Positions 3,636-36,463 of a DNA stretch of 64,000 nucleotides are shown one piece after another; within the stretch, counting starts at the first letter, position 1; every line of letters starts with the position of its first letter. The DNA is from a virus: UHGV virus genome UHGV-2113617; one strand, written 5' to 3'. A program made the position numbers and the translations under genes. The notes beneath the pieces are model-generated. The model searched no databases, was not told the origin of the DNA, and saw nothing but the letters and a program-made list of their open reading frames with translations.

Positions 3636-3944
3636 TTAGTCTTCTATGATATCTCTATCATATCCAAGTGAAATGAGAGTTTCTTTGAAGTGTTTAATGT
3701 TCTTTTGTCTAGAATCATTGATGAAAATGACTGGATAACGAATGTTAAGAGATGTGAATCCAGCTCGTTTAGCAAGAGATACAATCAGTGGACGATCATA
3801 CTCAATCTTACCATTATTTGTAAGAACTTTATAGAAAGTAAAAGGAGCATTGAGCTCCTTTAGAAGTTTTGTAACTGATTGACATCCAGGACAACGACCT
3901 ACTTCATCTGGAATTCCATAGACTTCAATCTTGTTTTGTTTCAC
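3636..3944 (-). CDS. nrdH: NrdH-like glutaredoxin
   Basis: 102 aa with CPGC redox motif; sits next to nrdG. Confidence 0.7.
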   Translation of the reverse strand: MKQNKIEVYGIPDEVGRCPGCQSVTKLLKELNAPFTFYKVLTNNGKIEYDRPLIVSLAKRAGFTSLNIRYPVIFINDSRQKNIKHFKETLISLGYDRDIIED

Positions 3945-4273: not shown

Positions 4274-4744
4274 TTAATCATGTTTCCACACCCCATCGGT
4301 ATTTGACCAAAGTCGCTGATTATCTGATCCTCGCCACAGCTTTTTGGTCGGAAGATTTTTCTCATACTTCCCATCAATAATAACATCAACATATTTAAGC
4401 ATTTCTAGTTGTTTAATATCTTCAAATTTATATCCTGTCCACAACCAAATGCTTTTATTTGGATAAAGATTTTTTACCGTTTGAACAATGCAATGAACAA
4501 CATCTCGGTTATCAGGATAAAGAGGGTCTCCTCCAGTTATAGTTAATCCTTCTATATAATCATTATTCAAACATTCAATTAATTGTTCTAGTGTTTCACC
4601 AGTGAATGGAACGCCATTTCTAGCATTCCATGTTGATTTATTATAACACCCTTCACATTTATGCAAACACCCCGTAACGAAAAGAACGACCCTGCATCCA
4701 GGGCCATTCACAAAATCACAGGGATAAAATCTATCGTAATTCAT
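4274..4744 (-). CDS. nrdG: anaerobic RNR activating enzyme (radical SAM)
   Basis: 156 aa, CLHKCEGC = CxxxCxxC cluster motif; overlaps nrdD stop. Confidence 0.9.
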   Translation of the reverse strand: MNYDRFYPCDFVNGPGCRVVLFVTGCLHKCEGCYNKSTWNARNGVPFTGETLEQLIECLNNDYIEGLTITGGDPLYPDNRDVVHCIVQTVKNLYPNKSIWLWTGYKFEDIKQLEMLKYVDVIIDGKYEKNLPTKKLWRGSDNQRLWSNTDGVWKHD

Positions 4745-26766: not shown

Positions 26767-27069
26767 TTATTTACCTTTAATTACTTTAGCTGCTTCGATA
26801 GCCGCTTGCTGAAGGTCATCCATAGACATACCGAATTTAGAAGCAAAGTTATCAATTTTCTTTTCGACAGCATTCAAAGGCTTGGCCTGTTTACCTTCAT
26901 TAGCGCCAGGAAGAGCGAGAATACGTTCTTTGTCAATATAAAGGCTTACAAGTTTCTTACGGTCTTTATCGGACAAATCATGAAATGAATGGGCCTTTTT
27001 ATTTATAGCGGCTTCTAATTTACCTGCACTCACTCGCGCTTCAGTAATAAATTCTTGATATGTTTTCAT
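26767..27069 (-). CDS. ipII: internal head protein II
   Basis: 100 aa, N-terminal capsid-targeting sequence MKTYQEFITEA. Confidence 0.75.
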   Translation of the reverse strand: MKTYQEFITEARVSAGKLEAAINKKAHSFHDLSDKDRKKLVSLYIDKERILALPGANEGKQAKPLNAVEKKIDNFASKFGMSMDDLQQAAIEAAKVIKGK

Positions 27070-27177: not shown

Positions 27178-27756
27178 TTAAGAATTACCACGGGCTGCAT
27201 TAGCAACGGCGTAAGCGTACTGAACATTAGCGTCTTTAAACGTACCTTTAGAGGTATCTAGTTCTGCCTTAAAGCCGCCTTTAGTCATAACATCGGCAAA
27301 TTCTTTGCGGAAAGCCATTGCATCAAGGCTTCTCCATGACGATTTGTGCTTGGCGAATTCAAGACCAGCGTAGTTGACAGCCTTAGCTAATTTATTATCA
27401 ATAACCCATTTACCAGCTTTAGGCACAAACACCGGGCCTTTCTGTTTAGAGAATAGTTTTAAATTCCAGCGACGAAGTTCACCATCAGCTTTAACAAAAG
27501 CTGCGTCCAAGTTACTAGCAACAACATCTTGAATATGACCAAATTTAAGCCCATCAACTTCAATATTTAGATCGGTGCGCCAGCGAAGTCCTTCCCAAGC
27601 GAAAGCTTTAAAGTCGGAAGCTTTTGTAGCTAAGTATCGTTCAATAGGAGCTGTTTTAGGGTCAAAGCCGTTTCCTCGGTAAGTCCACTCATCTTTATTA
27701 ATGCCTTTGGCCTTTTCCACAGAAGCTTCAGCGATAAATTCTTTATACGTTTTCAT
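27178..27756 (-). CDS. ipIII: internal head protein III
   Basis: 192 aa, capsid-targeting start MKTYKEFIAEA. Confidence 0.75.
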   Translation of the reverse strand: MKTYKEFIAEASVEKAKGINKDEWTYRGNGFDPKTAPIERYLATKASDFKAFAWEGLRWRTDLNIEVDGLKFGHIQDVVASNLDAAFVKADGELRRWNLKLFSKQKGPVFVPKAGKWVIDNKLAKAVNYAGLEFAKHKSSWRSLDAMAFRKEFADVMTKGGFKAELDTSKGTFKDANVQYAYAVANAARGNS

Positions 27757-30785: not shown

Positions 30786-31316
30786 TTATATCATGCTATT
30801 TAAGAGATGTAAACTATTTTTAATTTTACAAATTCGTTCAGCTTCTTCAACAGCGGCGGCGATAATGCTTTTAGCTATAGGAGTACTAATACTAGTAGCT
30901 TTTACACTTAACACGATTTCTTTATCTTTACCAGGCCAACCCCACGATTTTTCACCGTGAGTGCCTTTAATTACAGCAGACACCTCAAGTGAGCATCCAT
31001 TATCATATGTTTTTACATTGACAACCCAAGGTTCACTTTTCTCAATCGGTTTCTCAATCGGTTTATCCCAGTAAATATTAAGAATACGTGGGACATCAAA
31101 TTTGGCAGGACAAATCTTAACTGTAAGACCTTCGCTTTCTAGCCAATTAATAAGAGGGCGTTCATACAGGCGACGATGTGGGCTTGGGATTCGACAAGCC
31201 TTATGTCCGTTGCTTGCGGCTTCACTAAGCTGTTCTAATACCTGCTTTTGCATTATTGATAAGATACCATCAAAAGATTTTTCGGAAGTTTCATTCAGTT
31301 CGGTATAAAGAGACAT
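30786..31316 (-). CDS. hypothetical protein
   Basis: 176-aa ORF. Confidence 0.6.
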   Translation of the reverse strand: MSLYTELNETSEKSFDGILSIMQKQVLEQLSEAASNGHKACRIPSPHRRLYERPLINWLESEGLTVKICPAKFDVPRILNIYWDKPIEKPIEKSEPWVVNVKTYDNGCSLEVSAVIKGTHGEKSWGWPGKDKEIVLSVKATSISTPIAKSIIAAAVEEAERICKIKNSLHLLNSMI

Positions 31317-31371
31317 AACAGTTTCCTCAAATTATAGGCTCATAATATCTCAATCATGAGCCTATGTAAAC

Positions 31372-31635
31372 TTATTTCATATTATTAAAATATTCTTCTG
31401 CGATTTCGTCGTTATCATGGTAAACTTTAGAAGACAGTTTAACATAACCTTCAGCAGTGAACATGTTAATCACAACCTTTACAGTATACCACTGACCATC
31501 TTCATTACCCATTACTGCGTAAGTTTCAAACATCGGATGATCAGGACCGATAACTTTAATATCATTCACTGTACGACCGAAATCTTCTGAAACGCATTTC
31601 ATAAAGAAGTTGAACAGTTCGCCGTAATTATCCAT
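31372..31635 (-). CDS. hypothetical protein
   Basis: 87 aa from MDNYGEL (GGAG RBS); longer ORF-track start lies inside the promoter. Confidence 0.55.
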   Translation of the reverse strand: MDNYGELFNFFMKCVSEDFGRTVNDIKVIGPDHPMFETYAVMGNEDGQWYTVKVVINMFTAEGYVKLSSKVYHDNDEIAEEYFNNMK

Positions 31636-31679
31636 TTCATTCTCCAAGTTGTTTTTCTGTATCAGTAGTTGATAGTTGT

Positions 31680-31709
31680 ATAGTACCATGGAAGAACGGG
31701 GATGTAAAC
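31680..31709 (-). promoter_or_regulatory. T4-type early promoter
   Basis: GTTTAC, 18 bp, TACTAT plus conserved leader. Confidence 0.6.
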
Positions 31710-31842
31710 CGTTTTGTGAAAAAATTTTTAAAAAGTTTTAGGGAATTCTAGGGCAGGGATGGGCAATTAAAGGATAGGATAATATATTATAAAGGGTATA
31801 AACTAAATGATGCCTAGAGAGGTCCAGAAAGGCCTAGATATC

Positions 31843-31869
31843 AAAAAGCCCCAACCTTTCGGTCGAGGC
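31843..31869 (-). terminator. rho-independent terminator (downstream copy of duplicated terminator)
   Basis: minus-strand GCCTCGACC-GAAA-GGTTGGGGC then TTTTT. Confidence 0.65.
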
Positions 31870-31877
31870 TAAGAATG

Positions 31878-32351
31878 TTATTTGATTTGTTTAGCAGACC
31901 AAATGCGGTCTTTGATGATTTTTTGGAGATCTTCAACATACTCTAGGTCATGAGCATGTGGATTATCTTTGAAACTATAGGCACGGGCTAATTTTTGGCC
32001 TTCGGTTTTAATTACTAAAAGCTCTTTAAGGATAGCTTCATATTTAGCGATAATTCCTTTAACAATATTTTTTTCTTGTGCAGCTTTAGGATCTGCTTTA
32101 GGAGCAGGTTTACCGGAAGGTTTTTCGAAAGCCGCACCAGTAGCAACCAGACTTTTCCAGGCGGTGGTAACATAGTTACCCACAAAGCCTTCAGCTCTCA
32201 TATCGTCGTAGAACTTGTACCGGGATTCGTCAGAAGCATCTTTATAAGAATATTTACCAGCTTTAATAGCAGCAGTTGCTACAGCGCGAACATCTGAAGC
32301 GGATGCTTCATTTAACACCACTTCATTTAAAAATTGAGCATATGATTTCAT
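31878..32351 (-). CDS. candidate internal (capsid-packaged) protein with CTS-like N-terminus
   Basis: 157 aa, MKSYAQFLNEV resembles the MKTY.EFI.EA capsid-targeting sequence; AGGAAATAAG RBS; late promoter 39 nt upstream. Confidence 0.6.
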   Translation of the reverse strand: MKSYAQFLNEVVLNEASASDVRAVATAAIKAGKYSYKDASDESRYKFYDDMRAEGFVGNYVTTAWKSLVATGAAFEKPSGKPAPKADPKAAQEKNIVKGIIAKYEAILKELLVIKTEGQKLARAYSFKDNPHAHDLEYVEDLQKIIKDRIWSAKQIK

Positions 32352-32390
32352 CTTATTTCCTGTTTTAATTCGTGATTTAATATACTACTA

Positions 32391-32398
32391 TATTTATA
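32391..32398 (-). promoter_or_regulatory. T4 late promoter
   Basis: minus-strand TATAAATA directly after the terminator. Confidence 0.65.
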
Positions 32399-32400
32399 CC

Positions 32401-32427
32401 AAAAAGCCCCAACCTTTCGGTCGGGGC
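32401..32427 (-). terminator. rho-independent terminator (upstream copy)
   Basis: minus-strand GCCCCGACC-GAAA-GGTTGGGGC then TTTTT; ends the tRNA/stable-RNA transcript. Confidence 0.7.
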
Positions 32428-32429
32428 TA

Positions 32430-32744
32430 AGCCTTGCGGCAACCTTGTCGGGGTTCCACCTGCTAAGGCAAGTGTTTGTACGAAACGCCGGGATTTGAAC
32501 CCGGTTATTGAGCAGTTGACGCTACTCAATATTTTTAAAAGGCCATATCTCGACCATATCCGAACGTTCCGTCAAAAACGCTACTCGGCTTACGGCAAAG
32601 ATATTTCCTCGAATCGATAATTTGGTGCGCCGTTTCTGCTGTGATGTAAGAGGGCATCAACAAATCATAAAGATTTATTAACACAATTCCTTACCCAGGG
32701 AACATCAGTCCGACGACTTACCGGTAGCGACCCGGTTTCTCATT
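32430..32744 (-). ncRNA. probable small stable RNAs (T4 species 1/2-like)
   Basis: no ORF; tRNA-like T-arm CCGGGTTCAAATCCCGG at 32488-32504; between tRNA-Arg and terminator; boundaries not determined. Confidence 0.35.
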
Positions 32745-32821
32745 TGGTCGAGGCAGAAGGATTCTAACCTTCAACCAACGGATTAGAAATCCGTTGCTCT
32801 ATACAATTGAGCTATGCCCCG
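32745..32821 (-). tRNA. tRNA-Arg (anticodon TCT)
   Basis: hand-folded cloverleaf: acceptor CGGGGCA/TGCCTCG, anticodon loop TTTCTAA, T-arm GAAGG-TTAGAAT-CCTTC, encoded CCA; ends +/-2 nt. Confidence 0.8.
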
Positions 32822-32824
32822 TAA

Positions 32825-33490
32825 TTAAAATTTCATTTTTCGACCTTTAAACCATCCTTCTGGAATTGGGTCAGTTTTCTTAATACGTTTAGAAACTTTT
32901 TCATCTAATGAATGAATCCACATCATACCAAATTGAGAATTCTTTTCACCTTGTTGGTGTTTATTTCTGGCGTGAGATTCTTTCATTTTATTAATAGTTT
33001 CAGGAGTATGGGTCTTACCCAAGAAAGATTTAGTATTTAAAAATTTCTCTCTATACTTAGGATTATCCCAAAGCTGTTTAAACCTTTCTGAACCCATTTT
33101 ACGATATTTTTCTTTAAGGTCTGGGTCGTTCTCAAATCTGGTTTTAAAAGCGGCAGCTCCTTTTAAGGAAGCTTCTTTCTTTTTATCCAAATATTCTTTA
33201 GTGTTTAAATGGTCCCAACCACCTTCACCACCTAATTTCAAATTATAAACATCAGGGCGCTTTAAAAACTCTTCAGTCACAATATTCTTTTCTGACTCAA
33301 ACATAGAGGTTTTATCGTCAAAGAACTCTAATATTTCTTTAGAAAAATTTTCTATACCATACTTGTCTTGGGCTCTTTTTAATAATTTACCAGAACCCAT
33401 ATATCCATCATCTAAATTTTCGGTAGAATGAGCGCCTATGTAGATTTTATTATTAATTTTATTTGTTATTTTATAAATGTAATGGAACAT
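32825..33490 (-). CDS. segB: GIY-YIG homing endonuclease
   Basis: 221 aa, MFHYIYKITNKINNKIYIGAH motif; embedded in tRNA cluster as in T4. Confidence 0.8.
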   Translation of the reverse strand: MFHYIYKITNKINNKIYIGAHSTENLDDGYMGSGKLLKRAQDKYGIENFSKEILEFFDDKTSMFESEKNIVTEEFLKRPDVYNLKLGGEGGWDHLNTKEYLDKKKEASLKGAAAFKTRFENDPDLKEKYRKMGSERFKQLWDNPKYREKFLNTKSFLGKTHTPETINKMKESHARNKHQQGEKNSQFGMMWIHSLDEKVSKRIKKTDPIPEGWFKGRKMKF

Positions 33491-33531
33491 AAATATCTCC
33501 TATTTCTAAGAGTATTTATGTTCTCAAAATA

Positions 33532-33603
33532 TGGCCCTGGGTGGAATTGAACCACCATCTGGCGATTATGAGTCGCTTGCTTGAACCTTCCAGCTACAGG
33601 GCC
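33532..33603 (-). tRNA. tRNA-Ile (anticodon CAT, presumably lysidine-modified)
   Basis: acceptor GGCCCTG/CAGGGCC, anticodon loop CTCATAA, T-arm GGTGG-TTCAATT-CCACC. Confidence 0.75.
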
Positions 33604-33609
33604 TTGATA

Positions 33610-33682
33610 TGCTGATTGACGGAATCGAACCGCCGACGTCCTCATTACAAGTGAGTTGCTCTACCTACTGAGCTAAATCAGC
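33610..33682 (-). tRNA. tRNA-Thr (anticodon TGT)
   Basis: acceptor GCTGATT/AATCAGC, anticodon loop CTTGTAA. Confidence 0.8.
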
Positions 33683-33689
33683 GAAATTA

Positions 33690-33776
33690 CGGAGGCGATA
33701 GGATTTGAACCTATGAGTCGCCGGAGCGACTGCCGGTTTTCAAGACCGGTGCATTAAACCACTCTGCCACGCCTCC
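33690..33776 (-). tRNA. tRNA-Ser (anticodon TGA)
   Basis: acceptor GGAGGCG/CGCCTCC, anticodon loop CTTGAAA, long variable arm. Confidence 0.8.
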
Positions 33777-33778
33777 AG

Positions 33779-33852
33779 TCTCCGCGGCAGGATTTGAACC
33801 TGCGACATTCTGCTCCCAAAGCAGACGCTCTACCAAACTGAGCTACACGGAG
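33779..33852 (-). tRNA. tRNA-Pro (anticodon TGG)
   Basis: acceptor CTCCGTG/CGCGGAG, anticodon loop TTTGGGA. Confidence 0.8.
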
Positions 33853-33864
33853 TAAATTAAATTT

Positions 33865-33936
<72 letters not shown>

Positions 33937-33942
33937 AAACTT

Positions 33943-34029
33943 TGGTACGAGAAGTGGGACTCGAACCCACAAGGAAATCATTCCGCAGCATTTTAAGTGC
34001 TGTGCCTTTACCAATTTGACCATTCTCGC
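33943..34029 (-). tRNA. tRNA-Leu (anticodon TAA)
   Basis: anticodon loop CTTAAAA, long variable arm, encoded CCA. Confidence 0.75.
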
Positions 34030-34030
34030 G

Positions 34031-34103
34031 CTGGGAATAAAGGACTTGAACCTTTGCATCTAGCAGTCAAAGTGCTATGCCTTACCAACTTGGCTAATTC
34101 CCA
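34031..34103 (-). tRNA. tRNA-Gln (anticodon TTG)
   Basis: acceptor TGGGAAT/ATTCCCA, anticodon loop CTTTGAC. Confidence 0.8.
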
Positions 34104-34200
34104 ATTATTAACAAAGGCTCTCAAGCAAGAACCCTTGATGATAGAGGGTATTAATCAGTGCGATATGAGTTAATAATAACAAATAATTCTTAAAGCATAT

Positions 34201-34488
34201 TTACCATTTATGATAATACATATTTACGATGCATTCAAGACCCAAAGGATTCTTGAAAATATCATATTCAAGAGGACCTTTTTCTGTTTCAATAAAGAAA
34301 TCAAAGTTAACTGTGTTAAATTTACGGTCTTCCTTTACTAATTTAACCTGAGAAGATGAACGGTCAATGTAAACCTTTTCGACTTCAAAACACGTTAAAA
34401 TGCCATAATCATCAATCAAGGCTTTAGCTGCTTCTTGATCATATTTATATCCATTTTCAATGGACGATACTTTCGCATAAAGAATCAT
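34201..34488 (-). CDS. hypothetical protein
   Basis: 95-aa ORF. Confidence 0.55.
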   Translation of the reverse strand: MILYAKVSSIENGYKYDQEAAKALIDDYGILTCFEVEKVYIDRSSSQVKLVKEDRKFNTVNFDFFIETEKGPLEYDIFKNPLGLECIVNMYYHKW

Positions 34489-34490
34489 TA

Positions 34491-34673
34491 TTAACCTTTA
34501 GAAATTTTATCCATAGCAATAGCGATTAAACCAATTAAAAATGCTACTACAAGTGAAAAAACGTTTTCTGCTGTAGTTAATAATCCGCATATAAATCCAA
34601 CAAACATTGAAAAACTAAAAGCAGAAGCAGAAATTGCAATAGCAACATTTCGAATTAATTCACAGCGTTTCAT
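34491..34673 (-). CDS. small membrane protein
   Basis: 60 aa, two hydrophobic helices, GAGGAGAATAAA RBS. Confidence 0.55.
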   Translation of the reverse strand: MKRCELIRNVAIAISASAFSFSMFVGFICGLLTTAENVFSLVVAFLIGLIAIAMDKISKG

Positions 34674-34702
34674 TTTATTCTCCTCAGTAGTTGATAGGGT
34701 AA

Positions 34703-34732
34703 TAGTATCACTACCCTATCTAAAAGTAAACT
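34703..34732 (-). promoter_or_regulatory. T4-type early promoter
   Basis: GTTTAC, 18 bp, TACTAT. Confidence 0.6.
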
Positions 34733-34965
34733 TATTTTTTACGAAAAATTGATTTATTTTCTGCTGCCCATTTTTCAATAACTGCAGCAGGACCAGTAAC
34801 AACAATTTTATCGCCGTAATCTTCTGCGGCGAGTTGACCGAAATTATCTAATGCATCACGAAGAACTCCATGAGGCATTTCACCCATTTTATCTTTCTTA
34901 CCAGTGTAAATAAACTCAACTTTTACATCAGCCGCTTCATTGATAAATTCTTTGAAAGTTTTCAT
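34732..34965 (-). CDS. ipI-locus internal-protein-like protein
   Basis: 77 aa from MKTFKEFINEA (capsid-targeting-like start); adjacent to 57B as T4 ipI is. Confidence 0.6.
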   Translation of the reverse strand: MKTFKEFINEAADVKVEFIYTGKKDKMGEMPHGVLRDALDNFGQLAAEDYGDKIVVTGPAAVIEKWAAENKSIFRKK

Positions 34966-34999
34966 TTTGATTTCCATTTGGTTTTGTTTTGATAGGGTA

Positions 35000-35029
35000 A
35001 TAGTATCACAACTAAAACTCCATGTAAAC
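35000..35029 (-). promoter_or_regulatory. T4-type early promoter
   Basis: GTTTAC, 18 bp, TACTAT. Confidence 0.6.
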
Positions 35030-35041
35030 AACTTTGTGAAA

Positions 35042-35727
<686 letters not shown>

Positions 35728-35737
35728 TATAGTACCT

Positions 35738-36463
35738 TTAGTGTATTTTTAGTGTATTTTTAATTTTAGAAAAAAGTTCTTCAAGAGAACCATCGTTTGT
35801 AATTACTAAATCACCATCACGAATTGGCAATCCAGCTTCTGTAATATGTGTATCATTGGATTTTTGACCAGGACGAACTACATGAATTACTGTAGCACCC
35901 ATCGCCCTAGCCGCATCCATTTCATGATCTTGACGAGTATCAGGAACGATATAATAATCATAACCTGAGTTAAATTTATCAAGATAATCTAAAGCAAATA
36001 ATTTTACCCAATACATGCGGTCGAAGTTATTAACAATCAAATCCGTACCTAGGGCTTGCATCAGACGACGGACTGACCATTGATCTTCAATATTATTTAT
36101 AACGTCAATAATCTTGTTACATGCTACGGAATCAACTGATTCTTGTCCTTCGTCCTCAAAAACACACACCCCCTTAATTGGGCTTTTACCGTTAAGATAG
36201 CAAAATGCTTGTTCCATAATCGTGATTACTTCTGATTTAGTCAGATTTAAATTAGTCTCACGATCATAGTCAATTCCTTCAAACTCTTTACGAGTTAAGC
36301 AAGGATAGTCGGTGTTTGCTGCAAATACACCCCATGCATAAGCCAATGCATCCTTAATAGGACCAGCAAGTTGGTATTTAACTGCAGAATAATTACTCAT
36401 GATAAAATCAGCAGTAGTATCTTTTCCACTACGCTTTACACCGCTTAAAAAGATTAGTTTCAT
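35738..36463 (-). CDS. 1: deoxynucleoside monophosphate kinase
   Basis: 241 aa from MKLIFLSGVKRSGKDT (P-loop). Confidence 0.9.
   Translation of the reverse strand: MKLIFLSGVKRSGKDTTADFIMSNYSAVKYQLAGPIKDALAYAWGVFAANTDYPCLTRKEFEGIDYDRETNLNLTKSEVITIMEQAFCYLNGKSPIKGVCVFEDEGQESVDSVACNKIIDVINNIEDQWSVRRLMQALGTDLIVNNFDRMYWVKLFALDYLDKFNSGYDYYIVPDTRQDHEMDAARAMGATVIHVVRPGQKSNDTHITEAGLPIRDGDLVITNDGSLEELFSKIKNTLKIH

Follow-up and report, generated by a model that had tools for sequence, protein, structure and literature searches.

The stretch of DNA analysed here (the window) comprises 64,000 nt of the virus genome UHGV-2113617 and belongs to a T4-like phage (Tequatrovirus); no record in the phage collection was identical to it, and its best matches there were 95-97% identical over 10 kb. 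Three ORFs, all on the minus strand and encoding proteins of 77, 60 and 95 amino acid residues, were found within positions 34201-34965 in the ORF list, next to 57B, where the initial annotation had placed them. The block is bordered upstream by 57B (35042-35497) and downstream by a tRNA-Gln gene (34030-34103). With respect to the direction of transcription, 57B, 57A, gene 1, gene 3 and gene 2 are located 5′ of the three ORFs, and a block of eight tRNA genes, with a segB-like GIY-YIG gene in its midst, is located 3′ of them; this gene order is that of T4. The Rfam scan of 31300-35200 returned tRNAs only. The features of the locus are as follows:

36094-36101, minus strand: nearest upstream TATAAATA (late-promoter consensus), inside gene 1, from a motif scan; the same site and context lie upstream of T4 ipI
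35042-35497, minus strand: 57B (Acb1 family), the anchor of the locus; Pfam PF23474 Acb1, 2.6e-60; phrog_755
34989-35029, minus strand: upstream copy of repeat D1, early-promoter-like (GTTTAC ... TGATACTAT), with an imperfect hairpin (-9.3 kcal/mol, z -1.7)
34936-34965, minus strand: codons 1-10 of the 77-aa gene, encoding the capsid-targeting-like leader (CTS) MKTFKEFINE with the I-N-E gp21 cleavage motif, followed by Ala11; read from the sequence
34732-34965, minus strand: CDS of 77 aa plus stop, assigned to ip6 (Ip6 precursor), starting MKTFKEFINEAADVK... / MKTFKEFINEAADVKVEF...; phrog_8111
34712-34943, minus strand: cassette-specific segment, comprising the mature part of Ip6 and the first ~20 nt past the stop; no T4 homology by blastn
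34691-34731, minus strand: downstream copy of repeat D1, early-promoter-like, 3′ of ip6 and 5′ of trna.4
34491-34673, minus strand: trna.4 homologue, 60 aa, two hydrophobic helices; 98% to T4 Trna.4; phrog_1692, 2.9e-33
34486-34493, minus strand: junction without trna.3; the trna.4 stop is 2 nt from the trna.2 start
34201-34488, minus strand: trna.2 homologue, 95 aa; 97% to T4 Trna.2; phrog_2023, 3.1e-48

Based on their full-length PHROG matches (phrog_8111, 2.2e-51, phrog_1692 and phrog_2023 for the 77-, 60- and 95-aa proteins, respectively), their presence in hundreds of phage records and a dN/dS below 1 for each, the three ORFs are real conserved genes and not chance reading frames. The 57B protein is a full-length member of the Acb1 (anti-CBASS) family, a known anti-defence gene lying directly 5′ of the Ip cassette. 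On the other side, the segB-like gene encodes a GIY-YIG homing endonuclease of 221 aa (32825-33490, minus strand) between tRNA-Arg and tRNA-Met(CAT)/Ile; T4 has a segB-like gene at the same place in the tRNA cluster, whereas T6-type relatives carry extra tRNAs (His, Asn, Tyr) there instead.

The 95-aa protein and the 60-aa membrane protein that had been listed beside the 77-aa gene are both present, but they are T4 Trna.2 and Trna.4, ordinary T4 genes and not novelties of this locus. The T4 order is trna.4-trna.3-trna.2, and T4 trna.3 (136 aa) is cleanly missing in the window: at the gap, the blastn alignment to the T4 locus breaks off at position 3928 and resumes at 4330, its two segments overlapping by 13 nt. 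The trna.3-less junction is identical in phage RPN226 and is also found in G2133; most relatives retain a trna.3 of 120-136 aa. A short motif, CAT.AT...ACCT.TA, is common to both T4 trna.3 junctions and, as far as the sequence suggests, could have mediated the loss. Pfam and NCBIfam contained no family for Ip6, Trna.2, Trna.4, T4 Trna.3 or the 157-aa protein described below.

The 77-aa gene occupies the position of T4 ipI, between 57B and trna.4. Its product is covered over residues 1-77/77 by phrog_8111, which is annotated as 'internal virion protein', and the gene was detected by tblastn in 247 phage records. The protein is 100% identical to that of the IME537 gene and 93.5% identical to that of a T6 gene whose note in the T6 GenBank record reads 'Ip6'; in T6, Ip5 sits between this gene and 57B. 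The gene is also annotated as ip6 or ipVI in PST, GiZh, VR7, fHoEco02 and other records. The VR7 'Ip6' is 75% identical, and the model of the window protein superposes on the VR7 model of BFVD with a TM of 0.92. The 77-aa gene is therefore very probably a bona fide ip6, a name which in T6 and its relatives follows the numbering of Repoila et al. 1994 (EMBO J 13:4181). Ip6 of the window and Ip6 of T6 and others (phrog_8111) are alike in family, genomic slot, length, CTS plus I/L-x-E architecture and flanking promoter repeat. They differ in the leader, which is MKTFKEFINE in the window and MKTYQEFIAE in most Ip6 alleles, and in the Ip content of the locus, where the window has Ip6 alone, T6 has Ip5 and Ip6, and teqdroes has Ip1 and Ip6.

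The initial annotation had read the gene as a short variant of IPI. T4 IPI is indeed longer, at 95 aa, and the two genes share the 57B-trna.4 position, the first seven residues (MKTFKEF) and the upstream promoter/hairpin element, and their mature products are similarly small (76 residues for IPI*, 67 for Ip6). The mature parts, however, are unrelated. BLASTP against T4 IPI aligned residues 1-14 only, with MKTFKEF identical; an hhalign comparison of IPI* with a profile built from the mature parts of Ip6 detected no homology (probability 0.2%, E 0.3); and the IPI* NMR structure 2JUB was not among the fold-search matches listed for the predicted Ip6 model. Moreover, T4-type Ip1 and Ip6 stand side by side in teqdroes, which shows that they are separate cassettes and not alleles. 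With the CTS as the only part in common, a short IPI variant was ruled out, and Ip6 is a separately named cassette that replaces T4 ipI; it was already known, and the window holds no new kind of element. T4 IPI* and mature Ip6 further differ in propeptide (19 residues, cut at ITE/A, versus 10; a slash marks the cleavage position here and below) and in charge (basic, pI 9.0, versus neutral, pI 6.8), and, within the limits of a predicted model, their folds are unrelated as well.

Two longer readings of the ip6 ORF exist, of 99 aa from a TTG and of 81 aa from 'MEIKM...', but it is the 77-aa start that alleles have in common, the teqdroes allele having no in-frame ATG further upstream. The TTG of the 99-aa reading is situated at the promoter -35 box or upstream of it. 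At the other end of the gene, two Ip6 alleles from metagenome/run assemblies (P0001 and P0003) are 98 aa long, the stop being lost and about 21 residues being read into the downstream promoter element.

The borders of the cassette were defined by blastn against T4. Homology to T4 reaches position 34711 (trna.4 and its promoter element) and restarts at 34944 (CTS codons 1-7, promoter and 57B). The 41-nt direct repeat D1 flanks ip6 and aligns with the regions upstream of T4 ipI, T4 trna.4, T6 ip5 and T6 ip6. Its downstream copy contains a perfect 12-bp hairpin (stem-loop 34693-34720; -16.4 kcal/mol, z -3.3) that overlaps the -10 region, and the copy upstream of T4 ipI retains the hairpin despite changes in both arms (GATGAGGTA/TACCTCATC vs GATAGGGTA/TACCCTATC). 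Conserved leader codons together with flanking promoter/inverted-repeat elements of ~70 bp were reportedly described by Repoila et al. in 1994 and proposed to mediate shuffling, and the features of the ip6 cassette match that picture. The cassette would thus have been brought in by recombination in the conserved CTS codons and in the flanking early-promoter repeats of ~40-70 bp. Codons 4-5 of the window ip6 (TTC AAA) are those of T6 ip5, and the upstream region is of the ip6 type; the ip5-type codons inside the CTS are read as a small recombination patch. A chimeric CTS produced by a simple ip5-ip6 deletion in a T6-like ancestor was also considered and is unsupported as stated, given that the upstream region is ip6-type and only codons 4-5 are ip5-like. 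The early-promoter repeat is not confined to the ipI locus, as a further copy (GTTTAC ... TGGTACTAT ... CTATCAACTACTGA) was found at 31662-31727, upstream of the e.8 homologue.

The leader was then compared with the characterised one of IPIII. Previous work on the IPIII CTS, MKTYQEFIAE, has shown that positions 4 (aromatic) and 7 (Phe) matter for targeting, that positions 8 (Ile) and 10 (Glu) matter for processing, and that the prohead protease gp21 cuts after L/I-x-E (PMC9026906). The MKT(Y/F)xEF(I/L)xE-type leader is present at the very start of Ip6, and its residues at positions 4, 7, 8 and 10 agree with these requirements of the IPIII CTS, which bears out the description of the MKTFKEFINEA start as capsid-targeting-like. 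I8-N9-E10/A11 is the sole L/I-x-E site in Ip6 and, on the basis of this motif, the predicted gp21 site; cleavage there would leave a mature protein of 67 residues (~7.4 kDa, pI 6.8). The CTS and cleavage-site residues are conserved across Ip6 alleles, including alleles whose mature parts have no more than 25-30% identity. T4 IPII and IPIII have the same 10-residue form of CTS (MKTYQEFIAE/A vs MKTFKEFINE/A) and the same gp21 motif; they differ from Ip6 in their locus, next to gene e, in their unrelated mature sequences and in having known targets (PMC12373910). A search of the accessible literature returned no virion proteomics or N-terminal sequencing for Ip6. Judged from the leader, packaging and processing of Ip6 are likely.

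The transcription signals raise the alternative that the CTS is vestigial and that Ip6 is an ordinary, unpackaged early cytoplasmic protein. An early-promoter-like site lies directly 5′ of ip6, and the motif scan detected no TATAAATA between 57B and ip6, as this alternative would have it. The nearest upstream site is the one inside gene 1, and trna.2 contains a second TATAAATA. T4 has both sites, each in the matching context, so the promoter layout of ip6 is that of T4 ipI, which encodes a known protein of the head that is packaged and injected. The missing proximal late promoter is therefore no argument against packaging, and the gene 1 site may possibly supply late read-through transcripts for 57A-57B-ip6. 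Since the CTS and cleavage residues have, in addition, been kept across alleles so far apart in their mature parts, a vestigial leader is considered very improbable.

The fold of Ip6 was predicted with AlphaFold2 from a 9-sequence alignment (mean pLDDT 79.5). The model consists of a CTS helix followed by a beta-alpha-beta-beta-alpha-beta domain; as predicted, the mature fold is a generic, small, ferredoxin-like alpha/beta fold that gives no functional clue and has no recognisable active site. A search by sequence for relatives of solved structure found none at E<=10.

The distribution of the gene was surveyed in 36 IMG/VR loci encoding 57B, five GenBank loci and the window, with the ORFs between 57B and the tRNAs clustered and the counts reported per 40 loci. 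At least 19 mutually unrelated clusters with a CTS-like start were found downstream of 57B, one to five of them in tandem per phage, and the ipI locus is as hypervariable as had been claimed. Trna.4 follows the Ip genes in 35 of the surveyed loci. Ip6-like proteins form the commonest Ip cluster (19/40 loci), and Ip6 occurs in 247 of the more than 700 phage records that match the locus. Homology of the mature part extends to distant Ip6 forms of 58-84 aa with 25-30% identity (hhalign 98%, E 1.8e-13), which have a GP..I..W..N motif in common. The exact layout of the window, 57B-ip6-trna.4-trna.2 without ip5 and trna.3, had its one uninterrupted match in vB_EcoM_G2133 (98.5%). The window is accordingly one more arrangement of a known shuffling system, with Ip6 alone and trna.3 lost. 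A word-indexed search of 5.8 billion proteins returned Ip6 proteins of T4-like phages only, and when 1.84 billion representative proteins were searched exhaustively with a profile, four hits were obtained, all Ip6-like, with no bacterial or distant relatives among them; by these searches, the Ip6 family appears to be confined to T4-like phages.

Selection on ip6 was compared with that on its neighbours. The dN/dS of ip6 was 0.37 against T6 and 0.25 against the teqdroes allele, whereas trna.4, trna.2 and 57B gave 0-0.06 in the same pairs. The dS of ip6 against the teqdroes allele was 0.52, several times that of the flanks, which points to an old allele moved by recombination. The differences from the teqdroes allele in the mature part all fall within residues 46-70, and residues 11-45 are identical; inside this identical stretch, the GKKDKMGEMP loop (residues 22-31) is invariant across the nine aligned Ip6 sequences. 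The raised dN/dS and the clustered changes together read as the evolutionary signature of an accessory gene.

These data bear on the possibility that Ip6 has no specific host target and serves as a filler or structural protein that aids ejection, DNA condensation or the assembly of the core, a function that has been suggested to make up part of the role of IPIII. The slower head assembly of IPIII mutants (PMC9026906) and the generic small fold predicted for Ip6, with no recognisable active site, are in line with such a role. The cassette, though, is dispensable and patchy, being present in fewer than half of the surveyed loci and in about a third of the matching records, which is unexpected for a structural protein; mature Ip6, with no net charge, would be a poor counter-ion for DNA; and the raised dN/dS with its clustered substitutions looks like a partner-binding surface under changing selection. 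A purely structural role is on this evidence improbable.

A literature search for the function of Ip6 itself found nothing relevant. In contrast to Ip6, the targets of three internal proteins have been reported: Ip1, Ip2 and Ip3 share the leader only, and each inhibits one GmrSD-family type IV restriction enzyme without cross-protection (Silas et al. 2025, PMC12373910), the pairings being Ip1-CT596, Ip2-ECOR21/BrxU and Ip3-ECOR17 (PMC12373910). The same study set ten ip genes against five other GmrSD classes that were active and reported 'no new inhibitory interactions'; ip4-10 (Supplementary Fig. 9) gave no reproducible GmrSD inhibition (PMC12373910). The ip6 of that set is equated with the gene described here by the shared numbering. 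Among the internal proteins, a role against type IV restriction such as the initial annotation ascribed to IPI variants has accordingly been demonstrated for Ip1, Ip2 and Ip3 only. That the target of Ip6 differs from that of IPI, as had also been suggested, is plausible.

Ip6 is most likely a packaged, processed and injected anti-defence protein. This reading proceeds by analogy: three internal proteins without sequence similarity to one another, Ip1, Ip2 and Ip3, each inhibit a different GmrSD, and 57B, an Acb1 family member, adjoins ip6. The delivery route is presumably the same as that of T4 IPI*. The ip6 precursor would be made from a promoter layout identical to that of T4 ipI; its N-terminal MKTFKEFINE would bind the scaffolding core, so that Ip6 is built into the prohead, and gp21 would cut after Glu10 (I-N-E/A) to give a 67-residue, ~7.4 kDa, roughly neutral, ferredoxin-like protein. 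Mature Ip6 would then remain in the DNA-filled head and be injected with the DNA. Within the cell, it would most likely work as a stoichiometric protein inhibitor, directed at a host defence against the incoming glucosyl-hmC DNA, and the leading candidate for its target would be a type IV restriction enzyme of the GmrSD family, from a subtype for which no Ip has so far been identified. The identity of Ip6 and its delivery as a packaged, processed and injected protein are held with good confidence, with packaging, processing and injection inferred. The assignment of the target to a GmrSD-family enzyme outside the tested set is speculative, and we would give it somewhat less than an even chance.

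Several observations speak against a GmrSD role. Besides the null results for ip4-10, which were obtained on GmrSD classes active against T-even phages (PMC12373910), T6 is restricted by both GmrSD-ECOR21 and GmrSD-ECOR17 (PMC12373910). T6 natively carries Ip5 and Ip6 (T6 record), and it is still restricted by these two GmrSDs; the neutral charge of mature Ip6 is also unlike that of IPI*. Ip6 could alternatively be packaged and injected to act on a target of another kind, either some other early host function or a defence, for instance an abortive-infection sensor, a host protease or a nuclease of another type. Its co-occurrence with Ip1 in teqdroes, and with Ip2 and Ip3 homologues in the window, would fit a non-redundant role of this sort. 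Against it, each of the three Ips whose target is known inhibits a GmrSD-family enzyme, the tests covered only 8 active systems of this extremely diverse family (PMC12373910), and there is no positive evidence for any other target. A target outside the GmrSD family is rather unlikely. A more specific proposal, which we also put forward as doubtful, is that Ip6 would be an injected inhibitor of a defence not yet linked to T-even phages (a GmrSD subtype beyond the tested classes, or a non-GmrSD system), in which the invariant GKKDKMGEMP loop (residues 22-31) might make the contact and the variable beta-hairpin/helix (residues 46-70) might set an allele-specific target range. Of all phage proteins, the internal ones are the first that the host encounters, and finding the target of Ip6 would provide a new inhibitor-defence pair and help in predicting the host range of therapeutic T4-like phages.

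The phage has four CTS-bearing genes in three loci, and Ip1 is not among them. Homologues of Ip2 (26767-27069, minus strand; 94% to T4 IPII over 86 residues, with the C-terminal 14 residues divergent) and of Ip3 (27178-27756, minus strand; 92% to T4 IPIII) adjoin the lysozyme gene e. The fourth gene (31878-32351, minus strand) encodes a protein of 157 aa; it is flanked by the e.8 homologue and the tRNA-Arg gene, at a site without a gene in T4. Its product starts MKSYAQFLNE/VVLNE/A, a CTS-like leader with two L-x-E sites of the gp21 type, and the leader is conserved in distant homologues (MKTYNEFLNESVLTEA). The protein matches phrog_2280, which is annotated as of unknown function, and tblastn found it in 512 phage records, 'hypothetical protein' being the annotation in every one among the matches listed. 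Probably, this is an internal (injected) protein that has so far gone without a name, and its gene would mark a third Ip locus. A 36-nt direct repeat (31838-31873 and 32396-32431), 94% identical and containing a GC-rich hairpin (AAAAAGCCCCAACCTTTCGGTCGGGGCT), brackets the 157-aa gene, as if the gene were an inserted cassette.
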